Notes: generated from the sequence alone by a model not told the origin. A stretch of DNA of 64,000 nt from Rhodospirillales bacterium (GCA_028277795.1 JANQFP010000252.1:22490-86489); one strand, 5' to 3'. Positions 27,309 to 58,338 are shown, numbered from the stretch's first letter. Translations and numbers: made by a program.

Positions 27309-27893
27309 ATGAGTCCGCGACCAATCGTATCGTTGATTTGGCAAGGCCCTATCGGTGTCGGCAATCTTCCTGGGCTGGAGGGCCAGAAGGATTTGGTCGG
27401 ACCGCATATCTACGTCATATGCCAACATTACGCGAATCACACGACCGTCTATGTGGGCCAATCCAAGACTTTCTTGAATAGGCTTTGGCAGCATTATCTA
27501 AATTTCTTGGGGCTTCATTATCTTATTCGGGACGAAGACGGCGAACATGTCTATGATCCACGTAATGACGACATGTTTGAAAAGCTCAATAATCTGAAAG
27601 AGTTTTTCAGTTTTATTGTCAATGACGTGAGCAGGACGAGGATATTTTACGCAAAGTGTGCGCCAAAGGCCTTGGATCCAGTTGAAAGTACATTGATTGA
27701 CCACGCCTTTACAAATTTTCCGTACGAATCAAACGACAAGAAATATCGGTGTGACAATACTCGTCGTCAAAACTATGGAGACGATGACACACCAATAACC
27801 ATTGATATGAAATACGAGAGATTGGAGGATAATGGTAAAGTCGTGCTCAAAGAAATATTCGGCGAGCAAGTAAAGTGCAAATTTGACGCTTAG
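27309..27893 (+). CDS. GIY-YIG nuclease-domain protein (orphan)
   Basis: HIYVICQHYANHTTVYVGQSKTFLNRLWQH fits GIY-x10-YxG ... R ... H, and the downstream VESTLID supplies the conserved Glu. Lies in a visibly AT-rich ~650-bp islet. Confidence 0.6.
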   Translation: MSPRPIVSLIWQGPIGVGNLPGLEGQKDLVGPHIYVICQHYANHTTVYVGQSKTFLNRLWQHYLNFLGLHYLIRDEDGEHVYDPRNDDMFEKLNNLKEFFSFIVNDVSRTRIFYAKCAPKALDPVESTLIDHAFTNFPYESNDKKYRCDNTRRQNYGDDDTPITIDMKYERLEDNGKVVLKEIFGEQVKCKFDA

Positions 27894-31310: not shown

Positions 31311-32444
31311 GTGAGCGTTCCCTTAATCCAGCAGGTGCGGGTCGGCGCCTACATCCTCGGCAAGCGGTTGCGCGGCGTGGAGCGCTATCCCCTCGTGCTG
31401 ATGCTGGAGCCCTTGTTCCGCTGCAACCTGGCCTGCGCCGGTTGCGGCAAGATCGACTACCCGGACGCCATCCTCGACCGCCGCCTCAGCGTGCAGGAGT
31501 GCCTGGACGCGGTGGACGAGTGCGGAGCCCCGGTGGTCTCCATCCCCGGCGGCGAGCCCCTGCTGCACAAGGAGATCGACCAGATCGTTGACGGCATCGT
31601 TGCGCGGCGCAGGTTCGTCTACCTGTGCACCAACGGCCTGCTCCTGGAGCGGAAGCTGGACCTGTTCCGGCCCAGCCCCTACCTCACCTTCTCCGTCCAC
31701 CTGGACGGCCTGGAAGCGGAGCATGACGAAGCGGTGTGCCAGGAAGGCGTTTTCCTCCGTGCCGTCGCGGCCATCCGCGCCGCCCGCGCCCGCGGCTTCC
31801 GGGTCAACGTCAACTGCACCCTGTTCGACGGCATGGCGCCCGACCGGGTGGCAGCCTTCTTCGATTTCTGCACCACCGAGCTGGACGTGGAAGGAATCAC
31901 GGTCTCCCCCGGCTACGCCTACGAACGCGCCCCCGACCAGGAGCACTTCCTCAACCGCCGCCGCACCAAGGAGTTGTTCCGCGACGTCTTCCGGCGCGGC
32001 GCGGAGAGGTGGACCTTCAACCAGTCGCCCCTGTTCATGGACTTCCTGGCCGGCAACCAGAGCTACCCTTGCACGCCGTGGGGCAACCCGACGCGCAACG
32101 TGTTCGGCTGGCAGCGGCCGTGCTACCTGCTCAACGAGGGCTATGCCGCATCGTTCCGCGAGCTCATGGAGGACACAGACTGGGACGCCTACGGCACCGG
32201 CAACTACGAGAAGTGCGCCGACTGCATGGTCCACTGCGGCTACGAGGCGACGGCGGTCAACGACACCATCTCGCACCCCTTGAAGGCCCTAAAGGTGGCG
32301 CTCAGCGGCTTCGACACCGAGAAGCCCATGGCCCCGGAGATCCCGCTTGACGGCCAGCGCCCGGCCGAGTTCGTCTTCGAGCACTTGGTCGAGACCCTGA
32401 ACCGGCCCGACCCAGGCCCCGGCGAGCGCAGCGACGCAGCCTAA
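31311..32444 (+). CDS. hpnH: adenosylhopane synthase, hopanoid radical-SAM protein HpnH
   Basis: Radical SAM motif CNLACAGC. ~377 aa with a C-terminal Cys-rich region (CADCMVHCG). hpn context. Confidence 0.85.
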   Translation: MSVPLIQQVRVGAYILGKRLRGVERYPLVLMLEPLFRCNLACAGCGKIDYPDAILDRRLSVQECLDAVDECGAPVVSIPGGEPLLHKEIDQIVDGIVARRRFVYLCTNGLLLERKLDLFRPSPYLTFSVHLDGLEAEHDEAVCQEGVFLRAVAAIRAARARGFRVNVNCTLFDGMAPDRVAAFFDFCTTELDVEGITVSPGYAYERAPDQEHFLNRRRTKELFRDVFRRGAERWTFNQSPLFMDFLAGNQSYPCTPWGNPTRNVFGWQRPCYLLNEGYAASFRELMEDTDWDAYGTGNYEKCADCMVHCGYEATAVNDTISHPLKALKVALSGFDTEKPMAPEIPLDGQRPAEFVFEHLVETLNRPDPGPGERSDAA

Positions 32445-32791
32445 ATCTCTCCACCCCGTTCCGGCTTCATGTGGCGGGTCGGGTCCATGCTTTGATGCAG
32501 GATCCGGACGACCACGAGGTCCGATTCGATTTCGCGGTAGAAGATCACGTGCCGGCCGACGGCATGGCACCGCAGTCCCTGGGCGATGTCGTCGCGCGCC
32601 GCCCCCAGACCGGGCATATCACGCACCGTTCGCAATGCCTGCTTGATCAGGTCCAGGTATGTCCGCTTTTGGACCGCGCCCCAGTGGTCGAGTGTGTACG
32701 CACCTATACCGGCGAGGTCGCGCTGCGCCGGACCCGATAGACGGATCCGTCTAGAGGCCGGCAAAGAAGGCGTCCAGGTCCGGGTCCGCAT
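32441..32791 (-). CDS. parE: ParE/RelE-family type II toxin
   Basis: IRLSGPAQRDLAGIGAYTLDHWG ... VIFYREIESDLVVVRILHQSMD is the typical ParE pattern. Start uncertain (ATG 32791 overlaps parD; no canonical start codon nearer the conserved N-terminus). Confidence 0.75.
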   Translation of the reverse strand: MRTRTWTPSLPASRRIRLSGPAQRDLAGIGAYTLDHWGAVQKRTYLDLIKQALRTVRDMPGLGAARDDIAQGLRCHAVGRHVIFYREIESDLVVVRILHQSMDPTRHMKPERGGEI

Positions 32792-32999
32792 CCAGGTCGG
32801 TGAAGTCGCCGCGGGCAACTGCGTCGTCGCCCTGCCGGACGGCGGCCCGCAACCGTTCCATTTTCAACTGCCTCTGCTCCTCCACTCGCTTGAGCAGGCG
32901 CAGGGCCTCCCGGACGACCTCGCTGGCGTTGTTGTAATCGCCCGATGCGGCACGTTCCCGCACGAACTGTTCCAGGCTCGGGGTCAAACTGAAATTCAT
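32751..32999 (-). CDS. parD: ParD-family (CopG/RHH) type II antitoxin
   Basis: MNFSLTPSLEQFVRERAASGDYNNASEVVREALRLL is the typical ParD N-terminus. Confidence 0.8.
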   Translation of the reverse strand: MNFSLTPSLEQFVRERAASGDYNNASEVVREALRLLKRVEEQRQLKMERLRAAVRQGDDAVARGDFTDLDADPDLDAFFAGL

Positions 33000-35781: not shown

Positions 35782-36591
35782 TCAAGTGCCCCCTGCGGGC
35801 GACCGGCTGGCCTGGGCGGCTGGTATACCTGTGACGCGGGTCAACGGGATTCCAATCCCTACAACTGGACAGGGACTGCCGACGCCGCGGTCAAGACGCT
35901 GGTTCAACTTCGCCCAATGAGTTGTCGCCGCACCGAACTTGTCCGCGAAAAAGCAAGCGGCCCACGCCTTCGGGAATAGACATTTGTTGCGTTCCATATA
36001 TCGCTCAACGGCTTTCCTTTGCCGGGCAGTCGGTGCGACGCCGAAACGCGCCAACCTGTCGAAGGAGTTTAGGCCCTCCTCAGCCGCAAACTGGGATAGA
36101 CATCCTTCCAGACCTTCCTGAAACGATGCGCCTCGCGTTACGATGACGCCGATACTGATGGCACCATCAGCGTGAAGCCGGTTGAAGTTCTCCAAGTCCC
36201 TATCGAAGAACGGATCCTTGTTGTTCCATTCGATTTCCAGAGCGATTTTTCCCGCTTCTAACGTCTTTACGTGATCAACTTCGTGCGACTGCGAAAACGT
36301 CGTTTGTTCGTTGATCTTCTTTTCAACGTTGAACGTGGCTTTGCGCCAGCCGCAGTCTTGGAGAGAGTGACGAAGTCGTTGCGTAATCTGTGCTTCGCCC
36401 CCACCACCGCCAATCAACTCGGCGACAGGCACCGATACGACGCCGATCGTCCGCTCCAGTTCGGCGACCGCATCGGGGAAATCCTGATCCAGGATCGCAT
36501 TTGCGTGATAGGTAAAGCGGACGTCGAAACCAGCCTTGCGAAGACCTTCGAATACGGGAGGTTTTTTCCTTCGCTTGCCCGCTGGGCTCAA
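35782..36591 (-). CDS. type II restriction endonuclease, BglII/BamHI-like fold
   Basis: IALEIEWNNKDPFFDRDLENF and SIGVIVTRG resemble the catalytic-core pattern of BglII/BstYI-type enzymes. Start overlaps the methyltransferase stop (ATGA). Lower G+C than the flanks. Confidence 0.6.
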   Translation of the reverse strand: MSPAGKRRKKPPVFEGLRKAGFDVRFTYHANAILDQDFPDAVAELERTIGVVSVPVAELIGGGGGEAQITQRLRHSLQDCGWRKATFNVEKKINEQTTFSQSHEVDHVKTLEAGKIALEIEWNNKDPFFDRDLENFNRLHADGAISIGVIVTRGASFQEGLEGCLSQFAAEEGLNSFDRLARFGVAPTARQRKAVERYMERNKCLFPKAWAACFFADKFGAATTHWAKLNQRLDRGVGSPCPVVGIGIPLTRVTGIPAAQASRSPAGGT

Positions 36592-37250
36592 ATCTCCAAT
36601 TCCTCATGCCCGTAATTTGACCAGTCCCAATCGTAGCCACGGTGCCTGCGCCGAGTCGCTTCATAGGTATCGACTTCATTGCCCCATTGGAACCAGCTGT
36701 CGCGCCGCTCTCTGGCGAACAGCTCAAGGAATGGGCCGGGACTGCAGTCCTCAATAATGCGATAGAGAGTCGAAGGTTTCCGCGAGTGCTCCCGTTTGCG
36801 TTCAACCATAATGTTGGTTTGGCGCCGACCGGGACCCAGGGTGCGTAAATTGCCTTTGACGCCGAAAAGGACCATCTCGGTCACGTTGCGGAAATAGAAG
36901 CCGACACCACGACCGTCGGGGCCGCCGTCCTTTCGTACCTTGTACCACACGAGATTCGTCTTGTAGGTGAAGCCCCATGCGTCCAGCAGTGCCAATCCGT
37001 CGGCGAGCAAGGCATTTGGGCACCACAGATATATGTGGCTCGCCGGCTGCGCCAGATCGCCAACCGGCAGGCAACGCAGTTCGTCGGTGGACAGGGTCGC
37101 GTAGCGCGCGAGCCGGCGGTGTTCGGGCGCCACCTTGCCGGTCCGGTTCATGAATCGCCAGGGCGGATCGATGAGTACCGTTCCAAACCCGTCTGGATGC
37201 TTCCTAGAAAACGCGTCCAGCGATGCCTTGGTTGCTTCGATCTCAGTCAT
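36588..37250 (-). CDS. MT-A70-family DNA methyltransferase (DPPW motif)
   Basis: VLIDPPWRF catalytic motif, IYLWCPN and WGFTYKTNLVWYK blocks typical of MT-A70. Confidence 0.8.
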   Translation of the reverse strand: MTEIEATKASLDAFSRKHPDGFGTVLIDPPWRFMNRTGKVAPEHRRLARYATLSTDELRCLPVGDLAQPASHIYLWCPNALLADGLALLDAWGFTYKTNLVWYKVRKDGGPDGRGVGFYFRNVTEMVLFGVKGNLRTLGPGRRQTNIMVERKREHSRKPSTLYRIIEDCSPGPFLELFARERRDSWFQWGNEVDTYEATRRRHRGYDWDWSNYGHEELEI

Positions 37251-49698: not shown

Positions 49699-50505
49699 TC
49701 AAGCGGCGTGACCGGCGGCCAGCGCGTCGTCCAGGAAATCGGCGATGCAGTCGGCCACCTCGCGCCAGCGGGTCTCCAGCATCATGGCATGGGCCATGCC
49801 GTCGAACATGACGGCCTCGGTGCCGAAGGAGTCGGCCGTCATCCTGACCGCATGGACAGGGACGAACACGTCGTTGCCGACGCCCATCACCAGCACCGGC
49901 AGGTCCGGGCGCCCGCGCCAGCGCGGCATGCCGAAGCCCAACAGGTCCCAGGCGATGCGGCCCGATTCGCCCCGGGTTCGGGCCAGGTAGCGGTGGGCCA
50001 GCTCGTCCGGCAGGTCGTCGGAGAACAGGGCCCGGCGCATGACCCGGAAATCGGCGCTGTCGGGACCGTGGCTCTGCATCTTGGCCAATTCGCGGAATAC
50101 CGCCGGATGGCGCATGGCCATGGCCATGGTGGAGCCGACCATGCCGTGGGGCGGCGCCGACGCCATGAGCACCGCGGCCGGGACCCGGTGGTTGTGGATG
50201 TGGGCCTGCACCACGCCGCCGCCCATGGAATGTCCGATCAGCGCCGGTGGCGCCGGCAGGTCGGCGACCACCGACGCCAGGTCGGCCGCATAGTCGTCGA
50301 GGCTCGCCGCGGCCAGCCGCTCGGCCCCCTCGCTCGCGCCGTGCCCGCGCAGGCTGAGGGCGTAGGCGGCGTATCCGCGCTCGGCGAAATAGGGCAGGAA
50401 GTGCACGTCCCAGATCCACGCCGCGGCGAAGGCGCCGTGGACGAACAGCAGCGGCACCGGCCGCGCCGCGCCGCGCGGACGGCGGCTGATGACTTCGAGC
50501 TTCAT
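49699..50505 (-). CDS. alpha/beta-fold hydrolase
   Basis: Nucleophile elbow GHSMGG, with HG oxyanion region (LLFVHGAF). Confidence 0.8.
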   Translation of the reverse strand: MKLEVISRRPRGAARPVPLLFVHGAFAAAWIWDVHFLPYFAERGYAAYALSLRGHGASEGAERLAAASLDDYAADLASVVADLPAPPALIGHSMGGGVVQAHIHNHRVPAAVLMASAPPHGMVGSTMAMAMRHPAVFRELAKMQSHGPDSADFRVMRRALFSDDLPDELAHRYLARTRGESGRIAWDLLGFGMPRWRGRPDLPVLVMGVGNDVFVPVHAVRMTADSFGTEAVMFDGMAHAMMLETRWREVADCIADFLDDALAAGHAA

Positions 50506-50557
50506 GACGGACTCCCGGTCGAGGCGTTCTGCCCATCATGGGCATTGCCTGTTATTT

Positions 50558-50706
50558 GGCAACTCCACCCGTCCGGTCAACCGGCGCGGTTGGCTTGCCG
50601 GGGGTCGGCACCGGATGCTCGCGTCCGCGCTCCGCCATGGGGAACCTGGAGACGTCATGATTGCCGTCACCGACTCCATCGTCTTGCGTCTTGGACGACG
50701 CGGAGA
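50558..50706. repeat. direct repeat A (left boundary of quorum-sensing islet); contains a duplicated arfB promoter and 5' end
   Basis: Aligns by eye with 53988-54130 at high identity, including ATGATTGCCGTCACCGACTCCATCGTC. Antisense track ORFs from the two loci share DGVGDGNHDV.RFPM.ERGREHPVPTPGK. Confidence 0.8.
50657..50706 (+). pseudogene. arfB 5' fragment (truncated or decayed duplicate)
   Basis: Encodes MIAVTDSIVL, identical to the intact ArfB N-terminus. A 6-nt insertion follows and similarity then decays rapidly. No GGQ motif follows. Confidence 0.65.
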
Positions 50707-51111
50707 TACGGGAAGATCGAGTCTGTGCCCTGATGGCGCGGCCCGCCAGACACACGGCGACTGCCCGCTTGAAGCGGTCCCCCGCGCTACGACTTGGCAC
50801 GAGATCTCCCGTCCGCCACGAGCTCCGCCGCCTTCAGGCCGCCTTACAGGCCTCTACCCTTCTGCTCCCGCAATGGATGGTTTGGCGAGACGGGCGGTGA
50901 GAAGCTGCAAGGCCGACAGCTTGCACCGTGCCACCTTCTCATCCATAGTTGTAAATAGCCCTGCTCGTGGTCGGGCGCTGCGCGCTCAACATCGTTGCCG
51001 CGCCCGGGAGTCGCGCGCGCCGCCGTCGATGCCAACTGTCAGGTGATCGCCGTCTCAGGACAATCATGATGATCTTTCCGCACGGGCCCTAGTAGGGGGG
51101 GAGACCGAGCC

Positions 51112-51837
51112 ATGAATGTTCAGGAATTCGCTGAGAAGGTTAGGAACACGCCCCATTTGAGGGATTTTTCAGCCTGCATTGCCTCGACTCTTGATCATCT
51201 CGGATTTCAGCGACATGCCTATGTTGCGTTCATGGCAAGATCCGAGCCACACATTCTCGACAATTACCCGTCTGCGTACCGCGAGCATTTCATCGAGAAT
51301 GACTATGTTTACATAGACCCCGTTCTCATGGGTACGAAACGGTCGCTCTTACCGTTTAAGTGGAGCAAGGAAAGCCGCGTATTCTGCGAAAAGCTCCCCC
51401 TCTCACCGAAACAAAGACGAATTCTGGAAGAGGGGAGCGAGTTCGGGATCAATCGGGGCATAGCGATACCGATTCACCTGGTTCAGGGCTCATTCGGTGT
51501 CCTCGTGGCCAACTCCGATGTGCCGGCACCTGAGCTCGACAAGCTTTGGCAGGACAAGGCCCTGGAGCTTCAGCTTTACGCATTGCACATCCATGAGGCC
51601 TACCAAGAGATCGCATCCTTGCCCACCGACGATTTTGAGGCTCCGCTTTCGCCGAGAGAACGGGAGTGTCTCCAACTCCTAGCGGCCGGCAAGGACCTTT
51701 GGTCAGTGTCGGAGATATTGTCGCTTTCGCTGGACACCGTGCGCAACTATTTGCGCAGTGCCCGACGGAAGCTGCGCGTGACGAACACCATGCACGCCGT
51801 AGTCAAGGCCATGCATAACGGCCTCATCGGATACTGA
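51112..51837 (+). CDS. luxR: LuxR-family quorum-sensing transcriptional regulator (autoinducer-binding plus HTH)
   Basis: N-terminal autoinducer-binding pattern (YVYIDPV ... PFKW) and C-terminal LuxR HTH (LSPRERECLQLLAAGKDLWSVSEILSLSLDTVRNYLRSARRKL). Confidence 0.85.
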   Translation: MNVQEFAEKVRNTPHLRDFSACIASTLDHLGFQRHAYVAFMARSEPHILDNYPSAYREHFIENDYVYIDPVLMGTKRSLLPFKWSKESRVFCEKLPLSPKQRRILEEGSEFGINRGIAIPIHLVQGSFGVLVANSDVPAPELDKLWQDKALELQLYALHIHEAYQEIASLPTDDFEAPLSPRERECLQLLAAGKDLWSVSEILSLSLDTVRNYLRSARRKLRVTNTMHAVVKAMHNGLIGY

Positions 51838-51871
51838 GGCCGGAGCCCGCAAAATAAGGCCCACGCCCGCA

Positions 51872-51889
51872 TAGACCAAAATTGGTCTA
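51872..51889. promoter_or_regulatory. lux-box-like inverted repeat TAGACCAA-AA-TTGGTCTA upstream of luxI
   Basis: The 8-bp arms are perfectly complementary. It is centred ~65 nt upstream of the luxI ATG, in the luxR-luxI spacer. Confidence 0.5.
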
Positions 51890-51944
51890 GTGCAGAAAAT
51901 TAACATCCGGTGTCTCCTCGACCGCGTTGTCGAGGGGATATCTG

Positions 51945-52589
51945 ATGATCGAAATCTACTCACACGCGCAATTTCTGGATAGGCCCGACAGGGCCCATCA
52001 GCTGTTTTCGCAGCGCTACGAGATCTTCGTCCAGCGGCTGGGGTGGGCCCTTCCCACGCGCGGCTATTACGAATTTGACCAGTTCGACGACGACAGCGCG
52101 GTCTACATCCTGAGGCTGGACGACCAGGGTCAGTTATGCGGCTCCTGCCGCGTTTTGCCGACCACCGGCAGCTACATGTTGTCGGGCGTCTTCCGCTCGC
52201 TGTTGGGCACCGAGGAGGCGCCTCACTCGTCCGGTATTCTTGAGCTGAGCAGGTTCTGCATCGATACCAAGGCAGGGCCAGGCGCGGCGCCGGGCAGGAA
52301 CTGTCGCGTTACGACCGAGCTGTTTGCGGCCGTGGTCGATTATTCGCTGCGCCAAAGTGCGACGGATGTCCTTGCGGTCGTCAACTTGCCGATTCTCCGC
52401 ATCATACGCCGGCTCATCGGCGGCGAACCGGAATGGCGCGGCCCCCTCCGAGATCTGAACGGGACTCGATGCGTCGCCATCCGGTTCCCGGTCACCGATT
52501 GGATGCTTGCGCGGCTCCACGACCAGCTGCGCACACCGCTGGTTCATGCCGATGCAACTGAATCCCGATCGGTAATGAGGGCGGCATGA
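51945..52589 (+). CDS. luxI: acyl-homoserine-lactone synthase (LuxI family)
   Basis: Conserved LuxI residues visible: RYEIFVQRLGW, EFDQFDD, CRVLPTTG, ELSRF. ATG 51945 (the track ORF starts at 51927). Confidence 0.85.
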   Translation: MIEIYSHAQFLDRPDRAHQLFSQRYEIFVQRLGWALPTRGYYEFDQFDDDSAVYILRLDDQGQLCGSCRVLPTTGSYMLSGVFRSLLGTEEAPHSSGILELSRFCIDTKAGPGAAPGRNCRVTTELFAAVVDYSLRQSATDVLAVVNLPILRIIRRLIGGEPEWRGPLRDLNGTRCVAIRFPVTDWMLARLHDQLRTPLVHADATESRSVMRAA

Positions 52590-52864
52590 CCAGGAATACC
52601 AAAGGTCAAGCTGATCCGCCGAACAGCGAGAACGATGACCCCATCGACTGTCATGAAGACTGTGTCCGGACGCTTGGCGGATTCGCTTCGGCGCTCTGCT
52701 ACCTGGCCACCGAGGCCAAACAGGCGGGATGGCATAGGACGCATGAACATCTGGAAGAGAGCTACGCCACGTTTATCGATGAAATTCAATGCAGTGAAAC
52801 AGGGATTCCGACCCTGCCGCAGCTGCGGCTGCTGCTGAAGGCAAAGAGGGATGAGTTGAGTTGA
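52586..52864 (+). CDS. hypothetical small protein translationally coupled to luxI
   Basis: ATGA overlap with the luxI stop. 92 aa, acidic and Cys-containing. No family recognised. Confidence 0.45.
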   Translation: MTRNTKGQADPPNSENDDPIDCHEDCVRTLGGFASALCYLATEAKQAGWHRTHEHLEESYATFIDEIQCSETGIPTLPQLRLLLKAKRDELS

Positions 52865-53029
52865 CGGAATAAGCGTGAAGGCAGCGAGCAACCTGCGGGC
52901 TGCCGACCGGGCCGGGAAATGAACCTCCGGCCCTTCTCCTAAGGGACTTCGCCGGCTCCATGAGAGCCGAAACCGGGAGTGGAGCGACTTCCGGTAACGG
53001 GATCGCTCGCATTGAGGAGGATACGGAAG

Positions 53030-53941
53030 ATGGCCGAAGTGACCTACTTGGAACCGACCGCAAGCGTCGAGGAGCTGGTAAGCACCCTTAACCGTGACGG
53101 TTGCGCCGTCGTCAAGAATCTGGCGTCCCGTACAACCATCGATGCCGTGAAACGCGACATCGAGCCGTATCTTGCCAGGACCCCGAATGCGCACGGGCCG
53201 TTTGTGGGGTATTCCACAAAACGCACCAGCGGGGCCTTCAAAAAGGCCCCCAGTTCGATTGGCCTGGCCATGGACCCGCTCGTTCTTGGCGGAATGGATG
53301 CGATCCTCGGACCCAATTGCAGCCGCTTCCAAATCAACCTGACGCAGTTCATCTCCCTACAGCCCGGACAGAGAGCCCAGATCTTTCATCGTGACGACAA
53401 CATGTTCGGGCCCCATCACAAGCCCTTCCAGTACCTGATCAACGTCGTCTGGGCGATCGACGACTTCACCGAAGAGAACGGTGCCACCGTCGTCGCGCCG
53501 GGCAGCCACACCTGGTCCGAGGAACGCATGCCGGAGCCTCACGAGACGTGCATAGCGGAGATGGAACGGGGATCGGCGCTTCTGTTTCTGGGCTCGTTCA
53601 AGCACGGAGCAGGCGCCAACAACTCGAAACGGCCGCGCCTGGGCCTTGTCATCAGCTACTGCCTCGGCTGGCTGCGCCAATACGAAAATCAGTATCTCAC
53701 CATGCCCCCTTCGATCGCCAAGGGGCTGCCGGACGATTTTCTGCGGCTACTCGGATATAGCATTCACGAGCCGAATCTAGGTGTCTATGAAGGGCAGGAT
53801 CCGCTTGTCGTGTTCAGCGACGAATGCTCGGACACCATGCAGGCGCGGGACTATTTCTCACCGGAACTCACGGCCCGCGTCGAGGAGTACTACGCTTCGC
53901 TCGAAAACGGTGACCAGTCCGACATCACCCGAGCGGCGTAA
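53030..53941 (+). CDS. PhyH-family Fe(II)/2-oxoglutarate dioxygenase (quorum-sensing islet)
   Basis: HxD motif (IFHRDD), distal His (FKHGAGAN) and Arg. ATG 53030 (MAEVTYLEP). Confidence 0.8.
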   Translation: MAEVTYLEPTASVEELVSTLNRDGCAVVKNLASRTTIDAVKRDIEPYLARTPNAHGPFVGYSTKRTSGAFKKAPSSIGLAMDPLVLGGMDAILGPNCSRFQINLTQFISLQPGQRAQIFHRDDNMFGPHHKPFQYLINVVWAIDDFTEENGATVVAPGSHTWSEERMPEPHETCIAEMERGSALLFLGSFKHGAGANNSKRPRLGLVISYCLGWLRQYENQYLTMPPSIAKGLPDDFLRLLGYSIHEPNLGVYEGQDPLVVFSDECSDTMQARDYFSPELTARVEEYYASLENGDQSDITRAA

Positions 53942-53987
53942 GAACCGATCCACAGAGCCTTGGGTCGGACGAAATCGTCTGATCCTC

Positions 53988-54130
53988 GGCAATTCCGCCC
54001 GCCCGGTGAACCGGTGCGGTTGACTTGCCCGGGGTCGGCACAGGATGCTCGCGCCCGCGTTCCATCATCGGGAACCTGGCGACGTCATGATTGCCGTCAC
54101 CGACTCCATCGTCCTGGACGACGCGGAAAT
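53988..54130. repeat. direct repeat B (right boundary of quorum-sensing islet); native arfB promoter and 5' end
   Basis: See repeat A. The two copies are ~3.43 kb apart. Confidence 0.8.
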
Positions 54131-54512
54131 CCGCGAGACCTTCGTGCGCGCCCCCGGCCCCGGCGGGCAGAACGTCAACAAGGTGGCGACGGCGGTGCAG
54201 CTCCGTTTCGACGTGGCCGGCTCGCCGTCCCTGCCGGAAGCGGTGCGGGCCCGCCTGATCCGCCTCGCCGGGCGGCGGCTGACGGCCGACGGCGAGTTGG
54301 TCATTCGCGCCCACCGCTTCCGCACTCGGGAGCAGAACCGGCGCGACGCCCGGGCGCGACTGGTTGCCCTCATCCGTCAGGCGGCCGAGCGGCGCCGGCC
54401 GCGGCGTCCCACCCGACCCGGCCCCGCCGCCGTCCGCCGGCGCATGGAATCCAAACGCCGGCGCGGCGACGTCAAGCGCACCCGTGGACCGGTGCGACCC
54501 GACGACGACTGA
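54087..54512 (+). CDS. arfB: alternative ribosome-rescue factor ArfB (peptidyl-tRNA hydrolase, YaeJ family)
   Basis: GGQ motif (APGPGGQNVNKV) and basic C-terminal tail. Confidence 0.9.
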   Translation: MIAVTDSIVLDDAEIRETFVRAPGPGGQNVNKVATAVQLRFDVAGSPSLPEAVRARLIRLAGRRLTADGELVIRAHRFRTREQNRRDARARLVALIRQAAERRRPRRPTRPGPAAVRRRMESKRRRGDVKRTRGPVRPDDD

Positions 54513-54517
54513 CACCG

Positions 54518-54578
54518 GCGCGCCTTTGAACCGACTCGCGAAGCGCCGTCGTTACGCGCCGGAAAGCCCGCGCGGCGT
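54518..54578. repeat. REP-like structured intergenic repeat, copy 2
   Basis: Same element as 9576-9636. Begins 6 nt after the arfB stop. Confidence 0.7.
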
Positions 54579-57668: not shown

Positions 57669-57926
57669 ATGCGGACGTGGCCGGTGCAGGAGGCAAAGGC
57701 GCGGTTCAGCGCGTTTCTCGAGGCGAGCCTGCGGGAAGGTCCGCAGGTGGTCACCAAGCGCGGCGTCGAAGCGGCCGTCCTGGTGCCCGTCGAGGAGTGG
57801 CGGCACCTGCAACGGTCCGCACGTCCGACACTGAAAGAGCTTTTGCTTGCCGACACACCGCGCGCCGAGATGCAGGTGCCGGCGCGCGGACGTTTGCGCC
57901 GTCGGGCGCGGGCGAATTCCGGGTGA
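57669..57926 (+). CDS. Phd/YefM-type antitoxin (VapB partner)
   Basis: MRTWPVQEAKARFSAFLEASLREGPQVVTKRGVEAAVLVPVEEW is the classic Phd/YefM fold pattern. AAGGAG SD upstream. Confidence 0.8.
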   Translation: MRTWPVQEAKARFSAFLEASLREGPQVVTKRGVEAAVLVPVEEWRHLQRSARPTLKELLLADTPRAEMQVPARGRLRRRARANSG

Positions 57927-57930
57927 CCGG

Positions 57931-58338
57931 GTGTATCTCCTCGACACCAACGTAGTGTCCGAACTGCGGCGGCCCAGACCCCATGGCGGGGTGGTCGCTT
58001 GGTTGGAGAGCGTCCCCGACGACCGTTTTCATCTTTCGGCGGTCACGCTGGGCGAACTGCAATCCGGCGTCGAGGTCACGCGCGAGCAGGATCCGGACAA
58101 AGCCTCCGCCATCGAGGCGTGGATCGAGCAGGTCGAGCGGACCTGGAACGTGTTACCCATGGACGGCCGTGCCTTCCGCGTGTGGGCAACGCTCATGCAC
58201 CGCCGGTCCGATGAGGTCGCCGAGGACGCCATGATCGCCGCCACAGCGGTGGTTCACGATCTGACCGTGGTCACCCGCAACGTCCGCGACTTCGTGCCGC
58301 TGGGCGTCAAGACGCTGAACCCCTTCGCACCCCGATGA
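57931..58338 (+). CDS. vapC: type II toxin VapC (PIN domain)
   Basis: VYLLDTNVVSELRR ... MIAATAVVHDLTVVTRNVRDF. GTG 57931 lies 5 nt after the antitoxin stop. Confidence 0.85.
   Translation: MYLLDTNVVSELRRPRPHGGVVAWLESVPDDRFHLSAVTLGELQSGVEVTREQDPDKASAIEAWIEQVERTWNVLPMDGRAFRVWATLMHRRSDEVAEDAMIAATAVVHDLTVVTRNVRDFVPLGVKTLNPFAPR

Follow-up and report, generated by a model that had tools for sequence, protein, structure and literature searches.

A quorum-sensing islet bracketed by direct repeats of the arfB 5' end in a Rhodospirillales bacterium, and its possible origin by a single crossover

How did a set of quorum-sensing genes come to lie between two copies of the start of a housekeeping gene, at a locus where no recombinase gene can be seen? 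The question is raised by a 64,000-nt stretch of DNA from a Rhodospirillales bacterium (GCA_028277795.1 JANQFP010000252.1:22490-86489; the whole stretch is referred to here as the window). Between an alpha/beta-hydrolase gene and arfB, which encodes the alternative ribosome-rescue peptidyl-tRNA hydrolase, the window contains an islet composed, in order, of a leader of ~0.4 kb, luxR, a likely lux box, luxI, a small open reading frame (ORF) designated orfX, and phyH. This four-gene cassette of 3.3 kb is bracketed by direct repeats that correspond to the 5' region of arfB (Table 1). The explanation favored here, to which we give an even chance of being correct, is that a circular cassette bearing a look-alike of the arfB 5' end was inserted by one crossover (Campbell-type) within a 33-nt core common to both repeats.

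The repeats had been recognized by eye in the original prediction at 50558-50706 and 53988-54130, and alignment with blastn confirmed them with slightly wider limits (50558-50713 and 53988-54136; E=9e-45). The copies are identical in 131 of 156 alignment columns (84%), or in 131/149 (88%) when the single 7-column gap is left out. They are the sole such pair, and no third copy was found in the 64-kb window. A repeat search returned two ungapped blocks with spacings of 3430 and 3423 nt, matching the blastn pair, and indicated a possible extension of ~14 nt, of low identity, at the left repeat edge. Each repeat consists of 99 nt upstream of arfB followed by arfB codons 1-17. The longest perfect run between them is 33 nt (GACGTCATGATTGCCGTCACCGACTCCATCGTC), comprising 6 nt before the ATG and codons 1-9, and exact matches to this core occur at 50651 and 54081 only. 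In both copies, the start of the repeat coincides exactly with the base of an imperfect 42-nt hairpin (GGCAA...TTGCC; 50558-50599 and 53988-54029), in which three inter-copy differences preserve pairing by one-sided changes. Predicted RNA folds of the repeats were no better than those of shuffled sequences (z -1.1 and -1.25), with compensatory pairs absent. The sole Rfam match, to Xoo8, was dismissed as weak, reaching 19.5 bits where the gathering score is 90.

The two copies have had different fates. The right copy continues into an intact arfB with a GGQ motif, as first described; its product matches the NF006718 equivalog with 178 bits against a cut-off of 100 and carries GPGGQ at residues 24-28. 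The left copy is a stub (arfB') whose frame is lost after codon 9 through a perfect 7-nt tandem duplication (CGTCTTG|CGTCTTG), and not through the 6-nt insertion after codon 10 that had been proposed. Faint residual similarity to arfB had also been reported beyond the left copy; this proved to be at chance level, with a Smith-Waterman score of 14 for 50714-51111 against 54137-54560 and 13.3 +/- 1.9 for shuffled sequences. A tblastn comparison of arfB with the left side recovered codons 1-17 only, and the sequences lying to the left of the two repeats are unrelated to each other. Homology therefore ends abruptly at both edges, as would be expected of a discrete shared segment and not of a decaying paralogue. 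A decayed full-length arfB on the left side was considered and ruled out, as both DNA and protein similarity end at codon 17.

Table 1. Positions of the islet, its bracketing repeats and the adjoining genes in the window
Feature	Position	Strand	Remarks
Alpha/beta-hydrolase gene, resident, divergent from arfB; left flank	49699-50505	-	Abhydrolase_6 1.6e-24; GC3 0.92
Hydrolase-proximal part of the original hydrolase-arfB intergenic region	50506-50557		Non-duplicated; unlike the sequence left of the right repeat
Left direct repeat	50558-50713	+	99 nt of arfB upstream region plus arfB' stub (ATG at 50657, 17 codons, frameshifted)
33-nt core, left copy	50651-50683	+	Exact match; proposed crossover site
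Tandem duplication CGTCTTG x2 in arfB' stub	50680-50693	+	Frameshifts the stub
Leader, treated as non-coding, 0.4 kb	50714-51111		Unique to the present genome; GC1 = GC2 = GC3 ~0.65
luxR-type regulator gene	51112-51837	+	Autoind_bind 1.2e-27, GerE 1.2e-15; GC3 0.66
lux-box-like palindrome TAGACCAAAATTGGTCTAGTGCA	51872-51894		Upstream of luxI; same in three lineages
luxI-type acyl-homoserine-lactone synthase gene	51945-52589	+	Autoind_synth 3.6e-32
orfX, 92-aa ORF	52586-52864	+	ATGA overlap with luxI stop; positional counterpart in L012-L016
phyH-family Fe(II)/2-oxoglutarate dioxygenase gene	53030-53941	+	PhyH 7.1e-28
Right direct repeat	53988-54136	+	99 nt upstream plus codons 1-17 of functional arfB; blastn
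33-nt core, right copy	54081-54113	+	Exact match
Intact arfB, alternative ribosome-rescue peptidyl-tRNA hydrolase gene	54087-54512	+	NF006718, GGQ, resident-like codon usage
GC1, GC2 and GC3 denote G+C content at first, second and third codon positions.

The nature and distribution of the differences between the repeats bear on their origin. Five differences fall within codons 1-17 (CTG/TTG, GAA/GAG, ATC/ATA, CGC/CGG and GAG/GAA) and all five are synonymous. The probability of this outcome is 0.0005-0.002 for random substitutions, and 0.009 for a duplication in situ in which one copy stayed functional and the other decayed. The synonymous-only divergence therefore places the history of the two copies in separate lineages, where each diverged as a working arfB gene, and one of them was brought in. 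The synonymous differences are also unevenly placed: codons 1-9, with ~6.7 synonymous sites, have none, and all five fall in codons 10-17, with ~6.3 such sites (Fisher p = 0.005). The flanks of the core differ by ~15%, with 14 differing positions among the 99 upstream bases.

Codon usage switches across the core: left codons 10-17 are islet-like, and the right copy and the arfB body are resident-like. The left copy uses TTG and ATA, codons that account for 5.9% of leucine codons and 0.2% of isoleucine codons, respectively, in resident usage. Under that usage, the synonymous choices of the right copy are 10^3.7 times likelier than those of the left copy, and for the choices of the left copy (TTG, ATA), islet usage gives a fit ~10^2 times better than resident usage does. 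The arfB body scores +0.25 log-odds per codon, compared with a resident mean of 0.30 +/- 0.08. On the upstream side of the core, the G+C difference runs the other way, at 72.7% in the left copy and 69.7% in the right. Such polarity across the core is the pattern predicted by a single crossover, inside the core, with a circular element.

The history proposed from these observations would begin in a related host of weaker codon bias, where a segment of ~150 nt was captured from the 5' end of arfB. The cassette, as a circle carrying one such segment (upstream region plus first 17 codons), would then have undergone one recombination with the 5' region of the resident arfB, within the 33-nt perfect stretch. 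Both repeats would thereby be chimeric, the left one consisting of native upstream sequence and codons 1-9 followed by element-derived codons 10-17, and the right one of upstream sequence from the element followed by the native body of arfB, which was kept intact. The left stub would have been dead, and the 7-nt duplication a later frameshift within it. The crossover could have been carried out by RecA acting on the 33-nt core, or by a tyrosine integrase that has since been lost or that acted in trans. We infer both the circular intermediate and the position of the crossover. The original prediction had envisaged an island that integrated at the arfB 5' end, brought a replacement for it, and later lost its mobility genes. 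The topology of that proposal is supported by the synonymous-only divergence and the codon switch, but the later loss left no trace; the leader has neither a coding signature nor a match to a protein family.

If the insertion took this course, arfB would now be expressed from incoming upstream DNA next to phyH. A consensus promoter/terminator scan, which was uninformative, predicted no plus-strand terminator-like site in the stretch from the left copy to luxR or in that from phyH to arfB. It is thus possible that transcripts starting at the displaced native arfB promoter extend into luxR, and that those of the quorum-sensing operon run on into arfB. The islet may also be lost on rare occasions if its repeats recombine through their 33-nt core, a RecA-mediated excision that the original prediction had envisaged.

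The composition of the islet interior supports a foreign, horizontally acquired origin. Domain matches identified luxR, luxI and phyH, which together with the small ORF make up the gene content that had been anticipated. LuxR contains both the autoinducer-binding domain (PF03472, 1.2e-27) and the GerE helix-turn-helix (PF00196, 1.2e-15). LuxI (PF00765, 3.6e-32) has R24, F28 and W34 in its translation, corresponding to the conserved residues Arg24, Phe28 and Trp34 listed for LuxI proteins in PMC3704786. orfX matched no Pfam or NCBIfam family, and a search of 1.84 billion representative proteins yielded just two credible relatives, of 82 and 98 aa; its product appears to be a small partner of the islet LuxI specific to this clade. 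Lower G+C in the interior had been noted at the outset and was borne out, at 58.4% for 51112-53941 against 67.6% for the whole window. GC3 is 0.63-0.76 in the four islet genes versus 0.88-0.97 in resident genes. Codon log-odds per codon are negative for all four islet genes, compared with a resident mean of +0.30 +/- 0.08 and a value of +0.24 for arfB. The assignment of the interior as foreign is based on this low GC3 and the negative codon log-odds.

The leader between the left repeat and luxR is treated as non-coding, because its G+C content is equal at all codon positions and no Pfam family was matched in its ten stop-free frames. It had no plasmid match and is not shared with the metagenome contigs L012-L016 described below. 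A 129-aa ORF starting at the left ATG (50657-51046) was rejected as a gene, given that it showed no codon-position G+C signature and no family match. Integrase and transposase domains were absent from the four islet ORFs, the ten leader frames and the genes within ~7 kb on either side, in agreement with the initial description. Upstream of luxI, a 23-nt block with an inverted-repeat core, TAGACCAAAATTGGTCTAGTGCA, is identical in three lineages, in surroundings that are 66-73% identical; its counterparts lie at about 1514-1536 in L013 and about 1026-1048 in L016. Such a lux-box-like site occurs once in the window, with 0 expected by chance. This block is likely a lux box serving as the LuxR binding site, and the quorum-sensing circuit of the islet looks intact, as judged from its sequence.

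The cassette is not confined to the arfB locus. The clade of its LuxI is rare, counting nine proteins in a collection of 5.8 billion; non-self identities are 59-71% (full-length members; one protein is partial) and the next match is at 35%. All contigs with a LuxI relative share the order luxR, luxI, small ORF, and those that extend far enough have phyH next. They are metagenome contigs with G+C contents of 47% (L016) or ~64% (L012-L015 and L023). Their homology to the window starts at ~51100, just ahead of the luxR start codon. LuxR is 72-80% identical to its counterparts in L012-L016, orfX has a 49-58% identical counterpart at the same place in these five contigs, and PhyH orthologues in L016 and L023 are 72-80% identical. 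These data showed that luxR-luxI-orfX-phyH is a conserved module present in other genomes. The neighbors of the module differ: in L013 it is preceded by an unrelated hydrolase-fold gene, in L023 it is followed by a TetR-like gene, and arfB is absent from beside the cassette on every relative contig. No LuxI relative was found in viral contigs, plasmid-borne LuxI matches were at most 36% identical, and matches of the islet DNA to plasmids were limited to short patches of phyH.

A link between phyH and luxI/luxR is already known in Novosphingobium; the novR/novI/phyH loci of Sphingomonadaceae associate LuxI and LuxR genes with a gene of the phytanoyl-CoA-dioxygenase family (PMC3704786). In contrast to those luxR-luxI-phyH loci, the islet genes all point in the same direction and a conserved small ORF lies between luxI and phyH. 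The islet also differs in that its closest relatives are solely metagenomic and its LuxI is no more than 36% identical to plasmid-borne LuxI. The linkage recurs in another arrangement in two distant contigs, L024 (Logan, run SRR20820740) and L025 (JGI 3300032132, a 4.8-Mb contig). Both carry luxR, phyH, luxI, an 81-aa ORF, a cytochrome P450 gene and a gene for an RND membrane-fusion protein. Their quorum-sensing locus adjoins F420 biosynthesis genes, and their PhyH is 50-52% identical to that of the window.

Support from a separate assembly came from Logan contig L011 (run SRR20820740), which covers 50654-53771 at 100% identity. Its start at 50654 takes in just the final 30 nt of the core, where a k=31 graph would be expected to break. 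Its other end lies within phyH (window position 53771) with no visible cause, and may reflect low coverage or a strain variant. Searches with the flanking genes gave distant relatives. The best relatives of the hydrolase among 185,579 species genomes were 54% (a Rhodospirillales bin) and 51% (Azospirillum isscasi) identical, with arfB not adjacent, and the nearest non-self ArfB in the 5.8 billion proteins was 73% identical. Exact look-ups of ArfB and the hydrolase found neither recorded. Three ArfB relatives (P0003, P0004 and P0007) had no synteny with the window. A DNA pattern encoding MIAVTDSIV gave two chance matches in unrelated genes among metagenome sequences and none in viral contigs, and a look-up of the hemerythrin regulator returned just a 1.4-kb Logan contig ending before arfB. 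The searched databases hold no close relative that could provide an empty site.

Several points weigh against a single crossover with a circular element. An integrase, a circular junction and an empty site are all unobserved, and no relative closer than 73% ArfB identity is present in the searched databases. A 3.4-kb circle with neither replication nor integration genes needs help in forming and in being transferred. The assignment of native and incoming repeat parts by codon usage draws on just eight codons, and the G+C polarity at the differing sites, taken alone, is non-significant (Fisher p = 0.23, binomial p = 0.15). With this number of differences, an identical run of at least 33 nt would not be unusual (p = 0.12), and the core could instead reflect constraint on the translation-start region. 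The window contig is probably from a metagenome bin, since a contig of another organism was also obtained from run SRR20820740, and independent assembly support is limited to the inner side of the left junction.

Other routes to the same arrangement were weighed against these data. One that is possible, though unlikely, involves no circular intermediate: a linear fragment from a related donor, in which the cassette lay 99 nt upstream of the donor arfB, would have been anchored in the resident arfB by one-ended homologous recombination, with its other end joined illegitimately at resident codon 17/18. On this view the donor would have contributed the right copy together with the 5' part of arfB, and the whole left copy would be native. 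This requires one event, accounts equally well for the sharp edges, the absent integrase and the synonymous-only divergence, and uses a mechanism documented in naturally competent bacteria and in Escherichia coli conjugation (PMC3240628). However, it predicts that left codons 10-17 are native, yet ATA (0.2% of isoleucine codons) and TTG (5.9% of leucine codons) are found there. To attribute them to later decay would require three GC-to-AT changes, all synonymous by luck, and the left upstream part is GC-richer than the right. The difference-free 33-nt core is also left unexplained. Assembly of the whole structure in another lineage, followed by its ready-made import through a double crossover in the hydrolase and arfB flanks (delivered, for example, by transformation or a gene-transfer agent), is quite improbable. 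This was the second option of the original prediction. The ~3.6 kb involved would fit one recombination patch and nothing in the window speaks against it, but such an import merely shifts the origin of the duplication to another genome, and a related genome in support of it was not found. The resident codon usage of the hydrolase gene and the arfB body means that the patch would have to end very close to the repeats.

Duplication of the arfB 5' region in situ when the cassette inserted, followed by decay of the unused left copy, would be in line with the inactivating tandem duplication in that copy and with a distance of merely 3.4 kb between the copies. We consider it very unlikely, as all five coding differences are synonymous (P = 0.009) and no AT enrichment over the right copy is seen in the upstream part of the left. 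In addition, no transposition mechanism is known to give a 150-nt target duplication. It is most unlikely that the arrangement is an assembly artefact, in which a separate molecule with the cassette and an arfB-like sequence was threaded into the chromosome through the 33-nt core. The sample is mixed, given that run SRR20820740 also gave L024, which is clearly from a different organism (GC3 0.62-0.83), and k=31 Logan contigs break at the core. Against this, differences directly flank the core, so reads or k-mers of at least 35 nt resolve the paths; the cassette has no replication gene for independent persistence; and L011 confirms the order arfB' stub, leader, luxR on a real molecule.

Insertion by a single crossover at the arfB core has partial parallels among described elements. 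The dusA-specific islands and prophages (Farrugia et al. 2015, PMC4482086) also insert at the 5' end of a housekeeping gene and supply a new 5' end; the native one is displaced to the opposite side of the island, which lies between imperfect direct repeats. They differ in having a tyrosine integrase by the junction, a 21-bp semi-conserved att core and lengths of tens of kb (PMC4482086), whereas the arfB islet measures 3.4 kb and is without an integrase; its ~150-nt repeats, 88% identical, are ~seven times longer than the att cores of gene-5'-end islands. As described in PMC2791158 (citing Hochhut and Waldor 1999), the SXT/R391 integrative and conjugative elements (ICEs) use the 5' end of prfC, a gene of the translation-termination family, and integrate between similar sequences of element and chromosome. 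SXT is ~100 kb, self-transmissible and defined by Int, and none of these properties applies to the arfB islet. Homology-facilitated illegitimate recombination resembles the case at arfB in placing foreign DNA beside a homologous anchor without a mobile-element enzyme (PMC3240628), but it would leave the left repeat wholly native, and the codon-usage polarity argues otherwise. Because the defining integrase is absent, the islet is not a member of the dusA or SXT families and is best filed outside them, as an islet that has no integrase and occupies a new site, arfB. No literature on arfB as an island integration site was found; the event is of a known kind, gene acquisition, at a previously unreported site.

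The cis-mobilisable elements (CIMEs) of Streptococcus consist of integrase-less cargo between att-type repeats and can potentially be mobilised in trans or lost by recombination between the repeats. The arfB islet resembles them in having cargo between direct repeats and no recombinase of its own. CIMEs, however, derive from identifiable ICE att sites, and the arfB islet has no known parent element or cognate integrase.

The surroundings of the islet contain further features. The non-duplicated part of the hydrolase-arfB intergenic region includes a 15-nt palindrome, TGCCCATCATGGGCA, at 50530-50544, a possible operator. To the right of arfB lie a gene for a hemerythrin-receiver protein and then ilvD. 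Other low-GC islets occur in the window, none of them with flanking direct repeats. The segment 19112-21111 (52-58% GC) contains a 234-aa ORF (GC3 0.57) that matches no family, and a gene for a RES-domain protein (GC3 0.71). An isolated 194-aa ORF at 27309-27893 (GC3 0.50, no Pfam match) lies in a kilobase of 53% GC, and a 56% GC patch at 36271-37250 contains an MT-A70-family methyltransferase gene (GC3 0.69) and an overlapping 114-aa ORF. A ParE-family toxin gene at 32441-32818 (GC3 0.76) and a PIN-domain gene at 57847-58338 (0.82) have GC3 values somewhat below those of their neighbors.

If the repeats are indeed chimeric, arfB would be expressed from imported upstream DNA and the native arfB promoter would be aimed at luxR, with effects that can be tested. 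Apart from this, the locus is one ordinary islet in a poorly sampled lineage. The test for synonymous-only differences, combined with the codon switch across the core, offers a simple tell by which a recombination scar may be distinguished from a duplication without recourse to relatives. A more far-reaching and distinctly doubtful proposition is that the cassette is a minimal enzyme-free mobile unit among related alphaproteobacteria, inserting and excising by host homologous recombination through the short perfect core of its ~150-nt arfB look-alike. Each insertion would then swap the arfB promoter and set luxR behind the displaced native one. As it stands, the locus suggests that a complete quorum-sensing circuit may enter a genome without a visible mobility gene, by means of a look-alike of the start of a housekeeping gene.

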